Shown in pieces: positions 31,881 to 49,922 of a stretch of DNA of 64,000 nucleotides. The notes beneath the pieces were generated by a model. That model saw nothing but the letters and a program-made list of their open reading frames with translations, was not told the origin of the DNA and did no database searches. The DNA lies in IMG/VR virus record IMGVR_UViG_3300013094_004547, positions 10,781 to 74,780 of that record; one strand, 5' to 3'. A program made the position numbers and the translations under genes. The stretch is from a virus. Positions within the stretch are counted from its first letter, which is position 1. Each line of letters starts with the position of its first letter.

Positions 31881-32174
31881 CCGCAAACCCCTGTTTTTGC
31901 TAGCGTTTTTCTGACGCCCGAGCGCCAATTACTACATCTCAAGAGGTCTAGAAATTGGCCGGTTTGGCGCGCGGTTTGGACGGGCTTGGGCTCGATCCAA
32001 TAAGTTGACGGAACCACGTCCGACGACCACCGCGAGCCGCCGGTTCGCGGTCCCGGAGTAGCGCGATTTATTAACAACCAGGGACGGCCCAGCGCGAAGC
32101 GTAAAAATTTATAGGTCTGCTTCGCGGCGACTTATCGGCGGTAGGGCACTATCGCGCTGCTCTAGGAGTAGCCG

Positions 32175-32576
32175 ATGTTCCCTTTTCGCAAAGCCCTCGT
32201 CGCAGCCGCTTTCACCGCGCTGATCCCATCGCCGGTCCTATTCGCCCAAGCTGATCAGGGTCGGCCCGCTTCGACCTCTGATGTGGCGACGCCTAGTCGG
32301 GCGTATCCGCTGCGCGTGGAAAGCACGATGGCCATCAACATTCCCGTAACGGCCGGCGCGGGTACCGAGGAGCAGGTTAAACAGATCGCCGTCGCTCGCG
32401 CCTACCTGTATCAGGCAGCGGCTCAAGATTGCGAAAACCTGAAGCAAGCCTTCAAAGCGGAGTGCCGGTTGCTGAATGTGCGGGTGAACAGCAACGTTCA
32501 GTCGAGGGGATCGTCAGGCGAGACGATGTTCATCAACGTCCAGTCCTCGTACGAGGTGATGATCCGTCCGAACTGA
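32175..32576 (+). CDS. Exported accessory (moron) protein
   Basis: AGGAG RBS, signal peptide, C-x10-C, AT-rich upstream region, opposite strand. Confidence 0.75.
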   Translation: MFPFRKALVAAAFTALIPSPVLFAQADQGRPASTSDVATPSRAYPLRVESTMAINIPVTAGAGTEEQVKQIAVARAYLYQAAAQDCENLKQAFKAECRLLNVRVNSNVQSRGSSGETMFINVQSSYEVMIRPN

Positions 32577-32671
32577 TGGGCAGCGCTATACAGGCTTGAG
32601 AGCGTTCGCACCTTAAGCGGCAAATGCTCGGGCAAAGCCCAATGCGAACCGGCGGTACCAGGCGCGGAGCA

Positions 32672-32818
32672 TCATTCGTCCCGCAGGATCCGGCCCCACT
32701 CGGCGAGCAGGGCCATCGGCAGCTGGTAGTTCGCCTCGATGATAAGGGTCGCTGCGGCCGCGTAGATGCCGATCAGGGACCAGAGATCGAGGTGAGCCGG
32801 CGGGTCAGAGCGCGTCAT
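32672..32818 (-). CDS. Small hydrophobic protein (48 aa)
   Basis: MTRSDPPAHLDLWSLIGIYAAAATLIIEANYQ..., translated by hand. Confidence 0.45.
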   Translation of the reverse strand: MTRSDPPAHLDLWSLIGIYAAAATLIIEANYQLPMALLAEWGRILRDE

Positions 32819-33209
32819 CGCCAATCAGGTCCTCGACGATCGCATCGCGCTCCGCGTCCGACTCCGCGAGCTGGAAGAGGTGCAGCTCCGTAGCGCGGTC
32901 GGACCGGGCCCAGTCGAGCGCCTCCCACATGGCGCCGCGATGGCCTGCTCCGACGATGCGGGCAAGGCCGCCATCACCGCGACGAACCGCCAGGAATACG
33001 GCGCCCGGCGCATCGACTGCGACAGCCTGCACGAGCGTGAAGACGGCAACGAGGTAGCGACGGCCCGACACCCCACGCCATGCGGACAGGGCGACTGTCG
33101 ACGATCGCGTCGAGGTAAGCCGTTCCTCACGGACTTCCGGGCGGGCCTTTCGATCACTCCCGATGCGGGAGAGTTCGTTCGACCAAGCGAGGCGTCTGCG
33201 CGAACTCAT
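32805..33209 (-). CDS. Hypothetical protein (AWRGVSGRRY motif)
   Basis: ATGA-coupled; WRG.SGRRY and ELHL..LA...R..I..DL. Confidence 0.7.
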   Translation of the reverse strand: MSSRRRLAWSNELSRIGSDRKARPEVREERLTSTRSSTVALSAWRGVSGRRYLVAVFTLVQAVAVDAPGAVFLAVRRGDGGLARIVGAGHRGAMWEALDWARSDRATELHLFQLAESDAERDAIVEDLIGDDAL

Positions 33210-33409
33210 GACCGCGACCCGCACACAACCTTGGTGTAGCGGCCGTCGCCAAGGAGACGATCCCGGGCAACGCTCGTCTGGCCGGCCATCATGCAAGCGA
33301 AGACGGAGGGCGTCTTCACAGTGATGACGTCGAGGGCAGTGTCGCGCTGGCAATCGGGCTGCGCGATCGAAGCGGCACACACCAGGATCAGGGCGAAGAC
33401 CGTGTTCAT
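33206..33409 (-). CDS. Small exported Cys-rich protein
   Basis: LILVC..PDC..TALDV..ACMMAGQ..YTKVVC. Confidence 0.7.
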   Translation of the reverse strand: MNTVFALILVCAASIAQPDCQRDTALDVITVKTPSVFACMMAGQTSVARDRLLGDGRYTKVVCGSRS

Positions 33410-33612
33410 GCGGTATTCCCCAGGGTGAGAGCGGCGACTAGGACGCAGGCGGCAAGCGCAAAGTGAAGGGCGGCGATCAGCAGGACGTCGCGGAACGACG
33501 TCTCGGCCGAGCGGCGCGGGTGGTGGGCATCGAGGCCGGCGATCGCGATCAGCAGCACCAGCGCCACCGCGATGAACGGGATGGGCGCGAGGCTCATGAT
33601 CGGGTCGTCCAT
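33406..33612 (-). CDS. Small two-TM membrane protein (holin-like topology)
   Basis: Two hydrophobic helices; coupled to the next gene. Confidence 0.55.
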   Translation of the reverse strand: MDDPIMSLAPIPFIAVALVLLIAIAGLDAHHPRRSAETSFRDVLLIAALHFALAACVLVAALTLGNTA

Positions 33613-33613
33613 C

Positions 33614-33769
33614 TCAGCGGCGCGCGTCCTTGGTCGGAAACAGCGCCGCGCACAGCGCCACGACCAGGGCGATCGCCAGGACCTGCGCTGTCAGCGGCGA
33701 CAGGCAGACCGGCGGCACGAACGGCGCGATGCTCTCGGGCGTGGCGACGTCGAGGATGAGGCCATCCAT
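33614..33769 (-). CDS. Small membrane protein (51 aa)
   Basis: MDGLILDVATPES..AQVLAIALVVALCAALF. Confidence 0.5.
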   Translation of the reverse strand: MDGLILDVATPESIAPFVPPVCLSPLTAQVLAIALVVALCAALFPTKDARR

Positions 33770-33770
33770 G

Positions 33771-33971
33771 TCAGGATCCTTGCGTCACGCCGAAACAGCG
33801 CAGCGCCTCGTCGGCCGAGAGCTTGGCGATCGGTCCTGAGACGACGCCGAGTTTGGCCGGGCCGGCGAACAGTTCGCGCTCGCCGCGGTAGACCGTCGGC
33901 TCGGCCACCGAGGCTGGCGCGATCCGCAGGCCGAGCAGAATGCCCAGTCGGGCGGCGAAGCGGGCGATCAC
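33771..33971 (-). CDS. Hypothetical protein
   Basis: GTGA-coupled to the upstream ORF. Confidence 0.45.
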   Translation of the reverse strand: MIARFAARLGILLGLRIAPASVAEPTVYRGERELFAGPAKLGVVSGPIAKLSADEALRCFGVTQGS

Positions 33972-34348
33972 AACCGCCACGCCTGCATCACGGCGCGTGC
34001 ATGCTCGCGCTGCTCGTCGACGAAGTGATCGCGGAACACGGGCAGGCTGAGGCCACGCACCATGGCGCGCTCGTCGGCCATGCTCGGGGCAGCGACGACG
34101 CGTGTGGCGTCGGCTATCTCGCTCCCGCGCAGGTCGCGGATCAGATCCCGGAAGACGCCGATCATGGTGGGCGAATGGACGACGACCACCGCACCGCCCT
34201 TCGGCAGGCTCATAATCATGCGATGGGTCCGACCGGACCGGCGCTTCTCGCCCGCGGACGGCTTGCCGGCGTCCAGGCGCTCGGACGCAGAGTAGCCCCG
34301 CGCATCCGCGGCGACGCCGACGCGCAGAGGTGTGTCCTGAAAAAGCAC
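33968..34348 (-). CDS. Hypothetical phage protein
   Basis: RRSGRT.RM..LPKGGAVVVVH..RGL..PVF.DH. Confidence 0.65.
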   Translation of the reverse strand: MLFQDTPLRVGVAADARGYSASERLDAGKPSAGEKRRSGRTHRMIMSLPKGGAVVVVHSPTMIGVFRDLIRDLRGSEIADATRVVAAPSMADERAMVRGLSLPVFRDHFVDEQREHARAVMQAWRL

Positions 34349-46857: not shown

Positions 46858-47055
46858 TCAGGCTCCGGGTGGTGGGTGGAGGTCGGTGTGCTGGCCGCGC
46901 GACCAGAGGCGCGGGTCCCATTCCCGGGCTCGCGTCTGCAGGCGGCGGGAGCAGGCCAGGATCGGCGTCGCGATCCAGCCGATCGCCAGGAACGGCACGG
47001 CCAAAGCCTGAAGGCACGCGGCGAGCCCGCGTAGGACGAAGGCGGCTGCGATCAT
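46858..47055 (-). CDS. Small hydrophobic protein
   Basis: ATGA-coupled. Confidence 0.5.
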   Translation of the reverse strand: MIAAAFVLRGLAACLQALAVPFLAIGWIATPILACSRRLQTRAREWDPRLWSRGQHTDLHPPPGA

Positions 47056-47480
47056 CGCCCGCCCCAGACTTCAGCGAGCTGCTGCCGGATCGTGGCTGCC
47101 TGACGCTCCAAGCGCGCCTGCCGGCAGACGCGCGCCGCCTCCTGCAGGGAGGCCGGCGACGCGTCCGGATTCACGAACACGAACAGCTCGGGCCCGTAGA
47201 CCTCGATCAGCCGGTGGTACGTGTTGCCCGACGGCGATGACGTACCGGACAGCCACTTCTCGACCGTCTTGGCCGAGATCTGTGTGTCTGCCTCGATGCA
47301 GGCGGCGGTCTTCTGCGGGTGGATCGTCCGCAGGAACTCGGCGATGCGCGCGCCGAAAATCTGGGGTTCGAGTACCCCAAGGTTTCGGAAGACTCCCTCA
47401 GATCTTCGCACGGGATTCCTCGATGCTGTGGGCATCGAGGAGCGGCCAATCGGGCCGGTCGGAAAAAGCGAGGCGGTCAT
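47052..47480 (-). CDS. HTH protein in CII-like position
   Basis: FLR..HP.KTA..I..TV.KWL..S.P..LI..YGPEL. Confidence 0.7.
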   Translation of the reverse strand: MTASLFPTGPIGRSSMPTASRNPVRRSEGVFRNLGVLEPQIFGARIAEFLRTIHPQKTAACIEADTQISAKTVEKWLSGTSSPSGNTYHRLIEVYGPELFVFVNPDASPASLQEAARVCRQARLERQAATIRQQLAEVWGGR

Positions 47481-47791
47481 TGATCGTCCCTCGCGAGGAG
47501 GTCGACGGAACGATGATCGAGGTCACGCGCCAGCGCTTGGAGGCTGATGGGCGCGTGAGACACGGCAGGGGCGGTCCGCGTGATGCGGGCCGCCTCGACG
47601 TTTGGGAGCTGGGCTGCGGATGCCCAGTGCAGCAGGAAGAAGCCGGTCCCCGCCACCAGCAGCCATGCGGCTATGCGGGCGCACGGCTGGCCGACAGCGC
47701 GATCCGCACGGTTGATATGGCCAAGCTGCGCGAACAGCGCGGCCCAGACGGCAGCCTCGACGCACAGGATCGGCGAGAGCCAACCGGGCAT
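47477..47791 (-). CDS. Two-TM membrane protein
   Basis: GGGAGG SD 6 nt before the ATG; two hydrophobic segments. Confidence 0.6.
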   Translation of the reverse strand: MPGWLSPILCVEAAVWAALFAQLGHINRADRAVGQPCARIAAWLLVAGTGFFLLHWASAAQLPNVEAARITRTAPAVSHAPISLQALARDLDHRSVDLLARDDQ

Positions 47792-47808
47792 CAGGCGCCT
47801 CCCGCGGT

Positions 47809-47881
47809 TGGCACCGCTGGGAGGAGACGAGCCCCCGGAGCTTGGTTTTGGAGACCGGCCCGCGCCCACACGCTCAGCAAT
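47809..47881 (-). ncRNA. tRNA-Trp-like element (73 nt, CCA anticodon, encoded 3' CCA; degenerate)
   Basis: Acceptor ATTGCTG/CAGCGGT plus G-CCA; GGT-CTCCAAA-ACC anticodon arm; GGGGG-CTCGTCT-CCTCC T-arm; shortened D-arm. Confidence 0.65.
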
Positions 47882-48163
47882 TGGGTGCTGTCTCTCCAGC
47901 TGTCACCGCTCATAGGTTGCTTCGGCTGCGGTTCCCGGCAGTGGGCCGTACTCCCACTCTCAGACGCCCCATCGGGCGAATTACTGCCCGGCACGAAGCC
48001 GGGACCGGAGGCCGAGGTCAGGCCGTCGCCATCACCCGTCGCTTCCGGCACGACCTTCTCAACGGACTGGCTCGGAAGGGCCGTCGCCCAGTCCCCACCG
48101 TCGCCCTGGTCGCCTCGGGCCGCTCTTGCCGCGCCATCGCGCGTATCTGGTTCTTCGTCCTCC

Positions 48164-48227
48164 AAAGGCGGCCGGAGCCCGAAGGCCCCGGCCAAGTCCA
48201 GGGAGGAAACGCCCACCATGGGGCATC
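48164..48227 (-). ncRNA. MmgR/suhB (alpha-r8)-like small RNA
   Basis: GATGCCC..GGGCGTT stem, TTTCCTCCCT-GGACTTGG core, C-UUCG-G capped hairpin. Confidence 0.7.
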
Positions 48228-48369
48228 TCCGGTCGGCGGACGCCATACCGACGGCCGGAGCTGGGGCGACGCGCTTGCCGGAGGCTCGCGATGCGTCGAA
48301 GCTGTGAGGATGGAGAGTCGGGTTGGGGCCCGACTCTCCTCGCGACCACCCATGCAGTTGGAGGCGACC

Positions 48370-48615
48370 ATGAGCGACCGCGATCTGCGGGCGAGGATCG
48401 ACGACTTGGAGGCCGAGATGATCGCACAGCGGTTCGCCGTGCACGCGATCATCGACAGCCTCAGGGCCATGCCGGACGATCAGCAGTTCAAGGACATCCA
48501 CTACCACGCGATGGGCAATCTGGCCGTCTCGCTGGCAGACAAGCCGATCTGGCCGGCGGCCAAGAAGGCCTTGGAGCTGATCTTCAGAGAAGCGATCCCC
48601 GACGAAAACCATTAG
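48370..48615 (+). CDS. Small antisense accessory protein
   Basis: GGAGG RBS; GC3 bias. Confidence 0.7.
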   Translation: MSDRDLRARIDDLEAEMIAQRFAVHAIIDSLRAMPDDQQFKDIHYHAMGNLAVSLADKPIWPAAKKALELIFREAIPDENH

Positions 48616-48917
48616 GCCGCCCCCGCCTTTGCTTCGGCCAAGAGCTGGCAGAGGCGGTTATTCAGCGCCTGTGCCTCGTCGAGTGTGAGGGAGAGGCGGC
48701 GCCACGAGTTCTCCACGGGAGCGTGGCCCGTGCGGAAGGCCGTCAGCTCGTGCTCCATCACCGTGATGCGACGGGCATAGGGGTCGTAGGTCGCCTCGAT
48801 CCACGACTCGCAATCGGTCACGCTGGTGGTGCGGAAGCGTCGGCGAAAGCCGGTGGCCGTGGCCTCGTGGTCAAGGCATTCGACGCGCTCGTCGCGGATG
48901 AGGTCGGAGCCGGACAT
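48612..48917 (-). CDS. Hypothetical early protein
   Basis: TGATG-coupled to cro. Confidence 0.65.
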   Translation of the reverse strand: MSGSDLIRDERVECLDHEATATGFRRRFRTTSVTDCESWIEATYDPYARRITVMEHELTAFRTGHAPVENSWRRLSLTLDEAQALNNRLCQLLAEAKAGAA

Positions 48918-49135
48918 CAGGCAGCAGCCCCCTCGGTGGGGGCGGCGTCGCGAACCCAGTCACGAAGGCCAACCGAGCCCTGGGTGACTTCTTCGATGCG
49001 GATGGCGACTTCGATCGAGGGGCCACGCTCTCCGTACTTCAGCTTCCGAATGCCATGCGCAGTGATCCTGCCGACGCGCTTCGCCATGGCGAAGTCGTCG
49101 AGGTTCTCGGAGCGCATGTAGTCGATGAGCCTCAT
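48917..49135 (-). CDS. cro: Cro-like HTH regulator
   Basis: MRLIDYM, GERGPS..A.RIEEVT.G.V..DW; divergent from cI. Confidence 0.85.
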   Translation of the reverse strand: MRLIDYMRSENLDDFAMAKRVGRITAHGIRKLKYGERGPSIEVAIRIEEVTQGSVGLRDWVRDAAPTEGAAA

Positions 49136-49143
49136 ACCCCACA

Positions 49144-49230
49144 GAATTGCCCTCAAAGGGAAAGAACGTCAACCCCTACAAGGGGAAGGACGCGCGGCGC
49201 TTAGATGCTCCATCAATCCCCTTATGGGGA
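49144..49230. promoter_or_regulatory. OR region: three CCC(C)T-N3-(A/G)GGG operators plus pR
   Basis: CCCTCAAAGGG 49150-60, CCCCTACAAGGGG 49173-85, TCCCCTTATGGGGA 49217-30; TTGACG -35 on minus at 49167-72. Confidence 0.8.
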
Positions 49231-49922
49231 ACAGCTTACGAGCGCTGCGAACAAAGCGAGGCTGGACGCACGATCAGGCGGCGTCCGAGATGGGTGTTTC
49301 GCGCGGCCAGTTCATTAAGCTTGAGCGCGGGGAGCGGGGGCTGACCGAGCGAACAATTGCGCTCGCGGCCAAGGCGTTTGGCGTGCCTAGGGCCGAAGTC
49401 ATCGAAGACGGCATAGCAGGGGACGTTCGGACGGTAACGCCTGCGGCGCCGCCGACATCCAACGTGCGTATATCGGACAGCGATGTTGGCTTGAGTCTCG
49501 CCAAACTAAAGGGGCCACGCGACGTACCGGTCCTCGGTACCGGTGTCTGCGGGGATGATGGCGACTTCCGCTTCAACGGCGAGACGATCGATTACGCGCC
49601 GCGGCCGCCCGGCATCGAGGGCAAGAAGGATGTGTTCGTCGTTTACGTCGTCGGCGACAGCATGGCCGAGCGCTACGAGGACGGCGATCCGCTCTACGTC
49701 GACCCTCACCGCCGCCCGAAGCCGCGGGACATCGTCATCGTCGAGCTGAAGGCGCCGAGCGATGGCGAGCCAGGCAGCGCATTCGTGAAGCGTCTCGTGC
49801 GCCGGGCCGGCGGCAAGATCGTCGTTGAGCAGTTCAACCCGCCCAAGGAGCTCGTCTTCGATGAGGATGAGGTGGCGCGGCTGCACCGTGTCATACCATG
49901 GATCGAGCTGATCGGGATGTGA
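49224..49922 (+). CDS. cI: CI-like repressor (XRE HTH plus S24 autoprotease)
   Basis: LRALR..RGWT..KLERGER.L; VCG cleavage site; VGDSM; FVKRL. Confidence 0.93.
   Translation: MGNSLRALRTKRGWTHDQAASEMGVSRGQFIKLERGERGLTERTIALAAKAFGVPRAEVIEDGIAGDVRTVTPAAPPTSNVRISDSDVGLSLAKLKGPRDVPVLGTGVCGDDGDFRFNGETIDYAPRPPGIEGKKDVFVVYVVGDSMAERYEDGDPLYVDPHRRPKPRDIVIVELKAPSDGEPGSAFVKRLVRRAGGKIVVEQFNPPKELVFDEDEVARLHRVIPWIELIGM

Follow-up and report, generated by a model that had tools for sequence, protein, structure and literature searches.

A candidate mosaic of non-coding RNA modules in the early operon of a temperate Methylobacterium-type phage

Closest described systems and the phage locus

RNA-based immunity is known from phage P4 (CI RNA) and from phages P1 and P7 (c4 RNA), these RNAs being processed by RNase P from tRNA-like folds, and in T4 the phage tRNA gene clusters are co-transcribed with small stable RNAs. 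Lambda nutR-tR1, with the terminated pR' leader (6S RNA), and the put RNA of HK022 represent processive antitermination, and a further relevant group is the alphaR8 family of small RNAs (sRNAs; RF00519), to which MmgR of Sinorhizobium meliloti and SisA-D of Caulobacter crescentus belong. The subject of this report is a stretch of about 550 bases (47800-48340) in a 64-kb window, the window being the whole length of DNA analysed, taken from a 74.8-kb IMG/VR virus record with a completeness estimate of 95% and a G+C content of 67%. The source is a temperate Methylobacterium-type phage with a cI/Cro switch, and the stretch, which lies in its early operon downstream of the cro-like gene, carries on the minus strand an alphaR8-type sRNA unit, a folded block of 188 nucleotides (nt) and a tRNA-Trp-like element.

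Members of the alphaR8 family have a 5' stem-loop, the single-stranded anti-Shine-Dalgarno sequence UUUCCUCCCU and a GC-rich 3' hairpin, an anatomy that the phage unit reproduces. The family members differ in occupying independent chromosomal loci and in ending with 6-8 U, whereas the phage unit is situated inside an early operon and has its own terminator stem followed by 2-4 U. The 10-mer serves as the seed for target repression with Hfq by Caulobacter SisA, an alphaR8 sRNA (PMC12559287), and is needed for the effect of MmgR on polyhydroxybutyrate storage (PMC7143759); alphaR8 targets were mapped only recently (PMC12559287).

With the lambda and HK022 leaders the locus shares its position, after the genes on the cro side and before the early genes that come next. 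However, the nut and put stem-loops stand upstream of terminators, whereas the hairpins of the phage block stand downstream of a terminator-type hairpin, and neither sequence nor Rfam similarity links lambda nut or HK022 put to the block. Two identical GGC-GACG-GCC hairpins within the block bear a loose likeness to boxB and to the two put stems, and might be binding sites for a protein or for polymerase. A boxA/boxB consensus and an N-like protein were not identified, no boxA search having been made and N-like proteins not having been sought systematically. No nutL-like counterpart was found, in that the leftward operon, which occupies 50-62 kb, contains none of the other four copies of GGCGACGGCC on the plus strand; around the copy at 33241 the surrounding sequence does not match. 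An antitermination role for the region, one of two roles offered in a preliminary description of this DNA, is possible.

A gene for a LexA-type helix-turn-helix (HTH)/S24 cI-like repressor (49125-49922, plus strand) is set opposite a Cro-like HTH gene (48917-49156, minus strand), and minus-strand genes continue with a TAXI binding protein, an MT-A70 methylase and then terminase, portal and tail genes; the divergence of repressor and Cro together with this gene run therefore identifies the minus strand as the lytic early direction. Relatives of the phage come from Methylobacterium genomes and prophage calls. A GC-frame plot gave a third-codon-position G+C (GC3) of 0.85-0.95 on both sides of 47800-48340 and no third-position signal within it, and the region is non-coding and RNA-rich on the minus strand. 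When the entire 551 nt was folded and compared with shuffles, z was -2.85 for the minus strand and -1.55 for the plus strand. Across the whole window, Rfam at gathering thresholds returned no matches and ARAGORN at default settings no tRNA call. Short contigs covering 48120-48298 and 48127-48355 were present in two sequencing runs of which the RNA status was a guess, and were not counted as evidence of expression.

The alphaR8-type unit and the folded block

The sRNA unit consists of the following features.

48155-48231, minus strand: alphaR8/MmgR-family sRNA unit (RF00519, 38.6 bits, E 5e-6, full model 1-77)
48224-48211, minus strand: 5' stem-loop, GCCC...GGGC, aligning with host copies
48209-48200, minus strand: seed UUUCCUCCCU, an exact 10-mer and the sole copy in the window
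48193-48170, minus strand: terminator-type GC-rich hairpin, with a U-tract of only 3 (48166-48164)

An MmgR-like unit had been noticed in the preliminary description, and its presence was confirmed by this match to the full RF00519 (suhB/MmgR) model, obtained in E-value mode at a score under the gathering cut-off of 41 bits. Copies at the same position in eight relatives scored 41.8-46.8 bits, above the cut-off, and the window copy was therefore assigned, at a score slightly below threshold, to an alphaR8 subgroup carried by phages. Five chromosomal alphaR8 copies at 57-76 bits and a prophage copy at 45 bits were detected in Methylobacterium G001, and an alignment of phage with host copies showed the core GUUUCCUCCCU..GACUU and the 5' stem-loop to be common to both. 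A distinct terminator stem, GCCGGGGCC-UUCG-GGCUCCGGC, sets the phage copies apart, and in these it is followed by 2-4 U, as against 6-7 U in the five host chromosomal copies. The unit is retained at the same position in about 12 phages, the flanking proteins of which are only 42-70% identical. Taken on its sequence features, the unit is very probably homologous to the alphaR8/MmgR family, and its short U-tail together with its position inside an operon suggests a leaky stop. A further alphaR8 copy was recorded in the same host genome (G001:C57:80834-80914, L061; 42.5 bits, just over the cut-off); its terminator is different, and it may have been brought in, as a second such copy, by a mobile element.

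Immediately beyond the unit lies the block, for which a covariance model (R1) was built.

47960-48147, minus strand: conserved structured RNA block, model R1 (alignments, RNAalifold, pair counts)
48143-48130, minus strand: block hairpin 1
48113-48050, minus strand: arm A, capped by GGC-GACG-GCC
48049-48004, minus strand: arm B, capped by GGC-GACG-GCC
48003-47987, minus strand: 6-base-pair (bp) hairpin CCCGGC-UUCGU-GCCGGG, its stem present in 8 sequences, one C-to-U change keeping a G-U pair
47977-47966, minus strand: 4-bp hairpin with a variable loop

The block was studied in two alignments, both confined to close relatives, one of seven sequences with 60 predicted pairs and one of eight sequences with 56 (A6). 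The predicted pairs were held in 98.8% and 97.8% of cells respectively, 36 of 448 paired cells being G-U, while slid controls were only 29-50% paired and the observed pairing or covariation score was reached in none of 500 shuffles. Pairs changed on both sides numbered six in the smaller alignment and five in the larger, values reached by 4 and 10 of 500 shuffles respectively. Column-shuffled alignments yielded z values of -3.16 for the minus strand and -2.77 for the other, and the corresponding consensus energies were -92.6 and -78.5 kcal/mol. Several single changes preserved pairing on the minus strand only, among them C-to-U changes facing a G at A6 columns 100 and 146 and the replacement of G-U by A-U at 112/133. 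The loop of the 6-bp hairpin varied (UUCGU, GUCAU, AUCAU and AUCGU).

Of the hairpins listed in the preliminary description, several are conserved and show compensatory changes. A GGACTGG/CCAGTCC helix was by contrast rejected as a conserved helix, its 5' arm having been replaced in relatives without compensation; supported in its place was a covarying apical helix around GGC-GACG-GCC, with the variants GGGC/GCCC, GCUGC/GCAGC, UACGGC/GCCGUA and GAUGG.GGC/GCC.CCAUC.

Divergence of the block was 0.05-0.10, compared in the same genome pairs with 0.28-0.34 at synonymous sites of an open reading frame (ORF) for a 63-aa membrane protein about 100 nt upstream, so that the block diverges 3-6 times more slowly than the synonymous sites of this neighbour. 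The block thus combines covariation-supported structure with no coding constraint, in only eight close sequences, and a functional RNA under nucleotide-level constraint is a reasonably likely reading of these alignments. No Rfam family matched the block, a search with model R1 gave nothing significant in 39 other loci, and weak 55-nt blastn matches were recorded in other genomes.

The absence of coding constraint was apparent from ratios of nonsynonymous to synonymous change (pN/pS) of 0.85-1.7 over six frames and from variable columns numbering 10, 12 and 12 by codon phase; conservation of an overlapping reading frame, raised in the preliminary description as the contrary outcome, was accordingly not what these values revealed. 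The same values bear on the proposal that the conserved product is a Gly/Asp-rich, low-complexity polypeptide, encoded by a 273-aa minus-strand ORF (47791-48612) or by another long overlapping ORF. The frame is open across the block in 7/7 aligned sequences, the G+C of its codon positions is weakly coding-like (about 0.75/0.60/0.78), and the two indels of the flanks, which are less conserved, both have lengths divisible by three. Yet pN/pS in the 273-aa frame itself is 1.03, the open frame across the block is Gly/Asp-rich with nearly all nucleotide changes altering the amino acid, GC3 is far below the 0.85-0.95 of the real genes of the phage, and neither Pfam nor PHROG provided a match for the ORF. 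Moreover, its N-terminal third is the antisense shadow of an 81-aa gene, and two antisense frames are just as free of stop codons, which is to be expected at 70% G+C. A protein product is for these reasons a highly improbable explanation.

Four copies of GCGACGG occur in the block within 82 nt (48104, 48087, 48042 and 48029), all on one strand, as compared with about one per 2.2 kb on that strand window-wide, and GGCGACGGCC is present six times in the window against 1.25 expected. The two arms, of about 50-60 nt, also align with each other better than shuffles do (p ~0.02), which suggests an internal duplication and leaves a role at the DNA level open. These repeats, and the unremarkable stability of single-sequence folds, would suit iterons or operators for a replication or regulatory protein of the phage, with the palindromes acting as DNA and the RNA fold incidental. 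Against such a role, the second repeat is flanked by variable positions whose changes compensate one another and preserve base pairs, the single changes at A6 columns 100 and 146 keep G-U pairs on the minus strand only, the consensus fold is 14 kcal/mol better on that strand, and there is no AT-rich unwinding element nearby. A DNA element is on this evidence unlikely.

It has also to be considered whether the region has any function, in that it could consist of mosaic junction debris, namely recombination scars, a dead tRNA and a captured sRNA fragment, with hairpins arising by chance at 70% G+C and conservation reflecting recent transfer. Such an origin would accommodate the three different inserts at the junction that follows the block, the decaying tRNA-like copy, half-block folds with z near 0, the narrow distribution, and the wide variation in conservation also seen among neighbouring modules. 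It is less readily reconciled with a block whose divergence, pair by pair, is 3-6 times below that of the neighbouring synonymous sites, with compensatory and wobble-preserving changes and the alignment-level z of -3.16, or with an sRNA unit held in place across phages whose flanking proteins have diverged so far, and is regarded as fairly unlikely.

Inheritance of the modules and the flanking elements

Homologous intervals were found using the downstream 142-aa gene and exact 18-21-mers as anchors, and comprised IMG/VR contigs L035, L038, L040, L041 and L048, the 1.1-kb metagenome contig L087, and Methylobacterium genomes G001 and G041, the G001 prophage being the same prophage as L038. In 18-20-mer pattern scans, chance matches made up 4/5 genome hits and 28/31 metagenome hits. 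Four zones were distinguished by the relatives with which they align. The first (48345-48240) aligns with no relative other than through a partial similarity to G041 from about 48268; the second (48238-47958) is common to all relatives at 83-90% identity, with a core above 93%; the third (47957-47809), which contains two or three small hairpins and the tRNA-like element, is common to the window and G041 only; and the fourth (47808-47594) is window-specific. Counted by module, about 12 phages have the sRNA unit alone, 8 sequences combine it with the block, and 2 have the hairpins together with the tRNA, while the 5' 100 nt occur in the window only. Four further phages (L036, L037, L039 and L042) have only the sRNA unit, upstream of a homologue of the 142-aa gene, and in L035-type phages the block joins directly to the homologue of window 47594 onward.

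In L040 and L087 an unrelated 132-nt hairpin module is found at the same post-block junction, which on the alignments is a hot spot for small inserts, three different ones having been recorded. This module (approximately L040:4747-4878 and L087:980-1110) is lower in G+C and has no Rfam match, and one of its stems displays a G-C to C-G compensatory change (GUCUGU/ACAGAC versus GUCUCU/AGAGAC). By the same comparisons the stretch is a mosaic of three separate RNA modules and not one cassette.

All of the motifs listed in the preliminary description were located on the minus strand, at their coordinates. The construction there placed on them, that the 550 nt form one processed regulatory RNA locus acting in immunity or antitermination, with the anticodon loop of the tRNA mimic kissing the foot of the sRNA terminator, has in its favour that all the elements lie on one strand without intervening genes, that the position resembles lambda nutR/tR1, and that a tRNA-like element beside small RNAs is reminiscent of P4 and P1, in which RNase P processes the immunity RNAs. 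As in those phages, small structured RNAs accompany a tRNA-like element in a temperate phage early leader region. The 7-nt complementarity is also present in the window, UUUGGAG (48166-48160) being the complement of CUCCAAA (47853-47847). However, G041, which alone among the relatives has both parts, carries CCGGGAG at the foot; the match is therefore not conserved and is probably due to chance. A single processed locus is unsupported because its parts occur in different sets of relatives, most phages with sRNA unit and block lacking the tRNA-like element, and because the 5' 100 nt are confined to the window and adjoin an opposite-strand gene. The window copy of the tRNA-like element has, in addition, structure-degrading changes relative to G041. 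RNA-based immunity is likewise unsupported, since the adjacent genes encode a cI repressor of the LexA type and a Cro-like protein, a further difference from P4 and P1 along with the unconserved pairing and the absence of the tRNA-like element from most relatives. The one-locus proposal is accordingly judged very unlikely.

The elements on the 3' side of the block are as follows.

47941-47957, minus strand: GUGGG-AGUACGG-CCCAC hairpin, found otherwise in G041 only, with an identical stem and a changed loop
47887-47932, minus strand: ACCGC...GCGGU long-loop hairpin, then GCUG-GAGAGA-CAGC hairpin, common to G041 only
47809-47881, minus strand: degenerate tRNA-Trp(CCA) gene (homology, G041 counterpart)
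47798-47824, minus strand: 11-bp hairpin CCUCCC-A-GCGGU / ACCGC-GGGAGG, pairing with a Shine-Dalgarno sequence (-23.5 kcal/mol, z -2.69)
47594-47808, minus strand: 215-nt insertion, window only, contributing 65 N-terminal codons together with their start codon (47791) and a Shine-Dalgarno sequence

The GCUG/CAGC stem (47900-47887) becomes GCCG/CGGC in G041, a compensatory change. What the preliminary description termed a tRNA mimic is present as a tRNA-Trp-like element, 75% identical over its full length (E 3e-4) to a Streptomyces-phage tRNA-Trp. It has a 7-bp acceptor stem with two G-U pairs, a discriminator G and an encoded CCA, but its D-arm is shrunken, only 3/5 anticodon-stem pairs form, and the 5-bp T stem carries a non-canonical T-loop, CUCGUCU. 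ARAGORN called tRNA-Trp(CCA) at 47881-47809 only at 90% thresholds, at which there were 9 calls in the window versus 4.6 per 64 kb of random sequence, so the call alone means little. Rfam at E<=10 on 47790-47960 gave nothing, and the element is therefore without covariance-model support; the Rfam check proposed in the preliminary description thus recovered the sRNA unit, below threshold, and neither the block nor the tRNA-like element. In G041 the counterpart was called as tRNA-Trp(CCA) at default ARAGORN settings and has a canonical T-loop (UUCGACU), a C3-G70 pair and 4/5 anticodon-stem pairs, although its Rfam score is only 28 bits, below the cut-off, and the D-loop is of 4 nt in both copies. 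All of the differences between the two copies weaken the cloverleaf in the window (C54, U58, C28-A42, U3-G70 and U12-G).

Like the tRNA genes of other phages, the element is a tRNA-Trp(CCA) with discriminator G and encoded CCA beside other non-coding RNAs; it differs from them in that the D-arm is shrunken in both copies and the window has lost the canonical T-loop and two stem pairs. The exact tRNA-like pattern was found in none of the viral contigs, and window 47590-47960 gave chance-level matches only against Methylobacterium G001, so that the element is not a recent copy of the tRNA-Trp of that host. Its descent from a tRNA-Trp gene is probable, and it reads as a decaying copy of a phage tRNA-Trp gene. 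The window copy is probably not a working tRNA, because it fails both default ARAGORN and the Rfam tRNA models.

Beyond this element, the insertion lengthens a small ORF, of about 36 codons in relatives, to 104 aa. In the relatives the stop codon of this ORF (L035:4885-5003 and equivalents; window 47477-47594, minus strand) overlaps the start of the 142-aa gene as ATGA, which suggests that the small ORF and the 142-aa early gene are translationally coupled; the RNA string would therefore stand before a translationally coupled early gene pair. Over its last 39 codons, the relatives' ORF matches the C-terminal part of the 104-aa ORF at 60-67% identity; in the window the small ORF has lost its own ATG (now ACG) and been fused to 65 new N-terminal codons with hydrophobic segments. 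In the hairpin at 47798-47824 one arm comes from the 3' half of the tRNA-like element and the other contains GGGAGG, the Shine-Dalgarno sequence of the 104-aa ORF; the hairpin is absent from G041 and exists only through the window-specific insertion. The 142-aa protein has no Pfam or PHROG match.

At the 5' end of the region a different set of elements was recorded.

48312-48339: perfect 11-bp inverted repeat with a 6-nt spacer (arms 48339-48329 / 48322-48312; -23.4 kcal/mol, z -5.55)
48267-48298, minus strand: CGACGC/GCGTCG hairpin (48298-48293 / 48272-48267), window only, not alignable in G041 or L035-type relatives
48227-48260, minus strand: CUCCGG-CC-GUCGG...CCGAC-CCGGAG hairpin, directly upstream of the sRNA unit
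48370-48615, plus strand: 81-aa gene (GC3 0.95; GGAGG 7 nt before ATG; homologues)

The outer stem of the CUCCGG...CCGGAG hairpin is retained in prophage G041 via a U-A to U-G change, and in L035-type relatives a different hairpin takes its place. The 11-bp palindrome has no counterpart in any aligned relative, and a gap of 12-30 nt separates its end from two candidate start codons, downstream of it, of the 81-aa gene, which had been missed in the preliminary description. Three homologues of this gene, at 60-91% identity, were found in two metagenome assemblies and Methylobacterium sp. D48H; its only family match is a weak one to PHROG 5305, and searches among viral and genome contigs with a single protein or an alignment as query found no loci. 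The gene converges on a 101-aa early gene (48612-48917, minus strand) with overlapping stop codons, and since it lies between the early genes and the region, early transcription would run antisense through it first. The first 100 nt, palindrome included, more probably belong to the module of the 81-aa gene, as a promoter or leader, than to the RNA string.

In L035-type relatives (L035:4356-4547, L040:4224-4415 and equivalents) it is the two-helix membrane ORF of 63 aa that precedes the sRNA unit, and its position corresponds to that of the opposite-strand 81-aa gene in the window; with pN/pS of about 0.6-0.8 in most pairs, this ORF is therefore under weak constraint. Elsewhere in the window, a segment of about 2 kb (31930-33970) contains no ORF with the phage's usual GC3 signature in a GC3-filtered list; it lies between a gene ending at 31928 and one starting at 34348, and includes the motif copy at 33241.

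A working model and its significance

The explanation favoured here, with middling confidence, is one of independently inherited non-coding RNA modules, in which an sRNA with a leaky terminator is followed by a structured leader. Early transcripts of the minus strand would reach the alphaR8 unit, where the sRNA hairpin would act as a leaky stop, like lambda tR1, so that some transcripts end there and yield the sRNA. The terminated sRNA would mimic the host alphaR8 regulators, using the seed, probably with Hfq, on ribosome-binding sites of the GGGAGG type; its targets could be host mRNAs that are ordinarily regulated by the alphaR8 paralogues of the host (carbon uptake, storage) and perhaps phage mRNAs. 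Read-through transcripts would carry the block as a structured leader or protein-binding platform, which might set the level of transcription or translation reaching the coupled pair formed by the small ORF and the 142-aa gene. If an intact tRNA follows, tRNA-processing enzymes would be expected to cut the precursor there, and in the window, with the tRNA decayed, its 3' half may instead pair with the ribosome-binding site of the newly created 104-aa ORF.

Several observations weigh against this model. The transcribed strand, the RNA ends and any processing are all deduced from sequence, and no promoter-like sites were found in a scan of 47000-49600. The single terminator-like site returned by a terminator scan of the same interval falls within the 104-aa ORF, and the RNA region itself gave no canonical intrinsic terminator, the sRNA hairpin with its UUU tail going uncalled; this U-tail is very short for an Hfq-type sRNA, and the window copy misses the RF00519 gathering score (38.6 versus 41 bits). 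The preliminary description had placed the region inside the pR transcript, and it does lie downstream of the cro-like gene in the early operon, but the opposite-strand 81-aa gene intervenes, so that its continuity with pR is not assured. As regards the block, the model R1 search recovered only the two known prophages among 146 Methylobacterium species genomes, which makes it rare, and its covariation comes from only eight close relatives and is concentrated in apical arm A and arm B. Further pair types did not exceed shuffles (450/500), unpaired columns were only about 2-fold richer in variation (p 0.07), and single-sequence folds of the block halves were no more stable than shuffles (z -0.2 and -0.6). 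The nearby TAXI protein is also 92-95% identical, so that recent mosaic exchange could partly explain the conservation.

The alphaR8 core GGGCGTTTCCTCCCNNGACTT was found in at least 119 IMG/VR contigs (L137-L216 and further loci), so that phage carriage may be common and not a curiosity, with the caveat that prophage calls can include host flanks. Among the matches listed, 9/14 sampled loci passed RF00519 at 54-69 bits, some copies stand among phage head or tail genes, and the longest downstream T run was 2-4 in 75/120 copies. In phage L148 a PHROG 'antiterminator' gene is followed, 161 nt downstream, by an alphaR8 unit. Within the literature searched, no report of a connection between alphaR8 and prophages was found. 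It is a tentative and rather doubtful proposition that alphaproteobacterial phages widely carry alphaR8 units, each combining a leaky leader terminator with a mimic that reprograms the host regulon, and that here the unit is coupled to the block as a read-through or processing platform or as an Hfq/sRNA sponge.

A temperate phage RNA that possibly reaches host networks has parallels in the prophage sRNAs and anti-sRNAs DicF, IpeX and the AsxR/AgvB sponges (the last cited in PMC12559287). These are either specific to phages or antagonists of host sRNAs, whereas the RNA considered here is a homologue of a core host sRNA family. Having the same seed as the host alphaR8 family, the phage sRNA would therefore mimic, and not sponge, the host regulator.

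In DNA of 70% G+C, a run of hairpins should be compared among relatives before being interpreted as a single machine, and the comparisons made here resolved this run into modules whose histories differ. As a candidate new structured RNA, the 188-nt block occupies a defined and genetically tractable position in the early operon, and is small enough for direct mutational tests. Few sRNA families are as widespread among Alphaproteobacteria as alphaR8, and a copy carried by a phage and sharing its seed would constitute viral mimicry of a host sRNA, unlike the sponging known from enterobacterial prophages.

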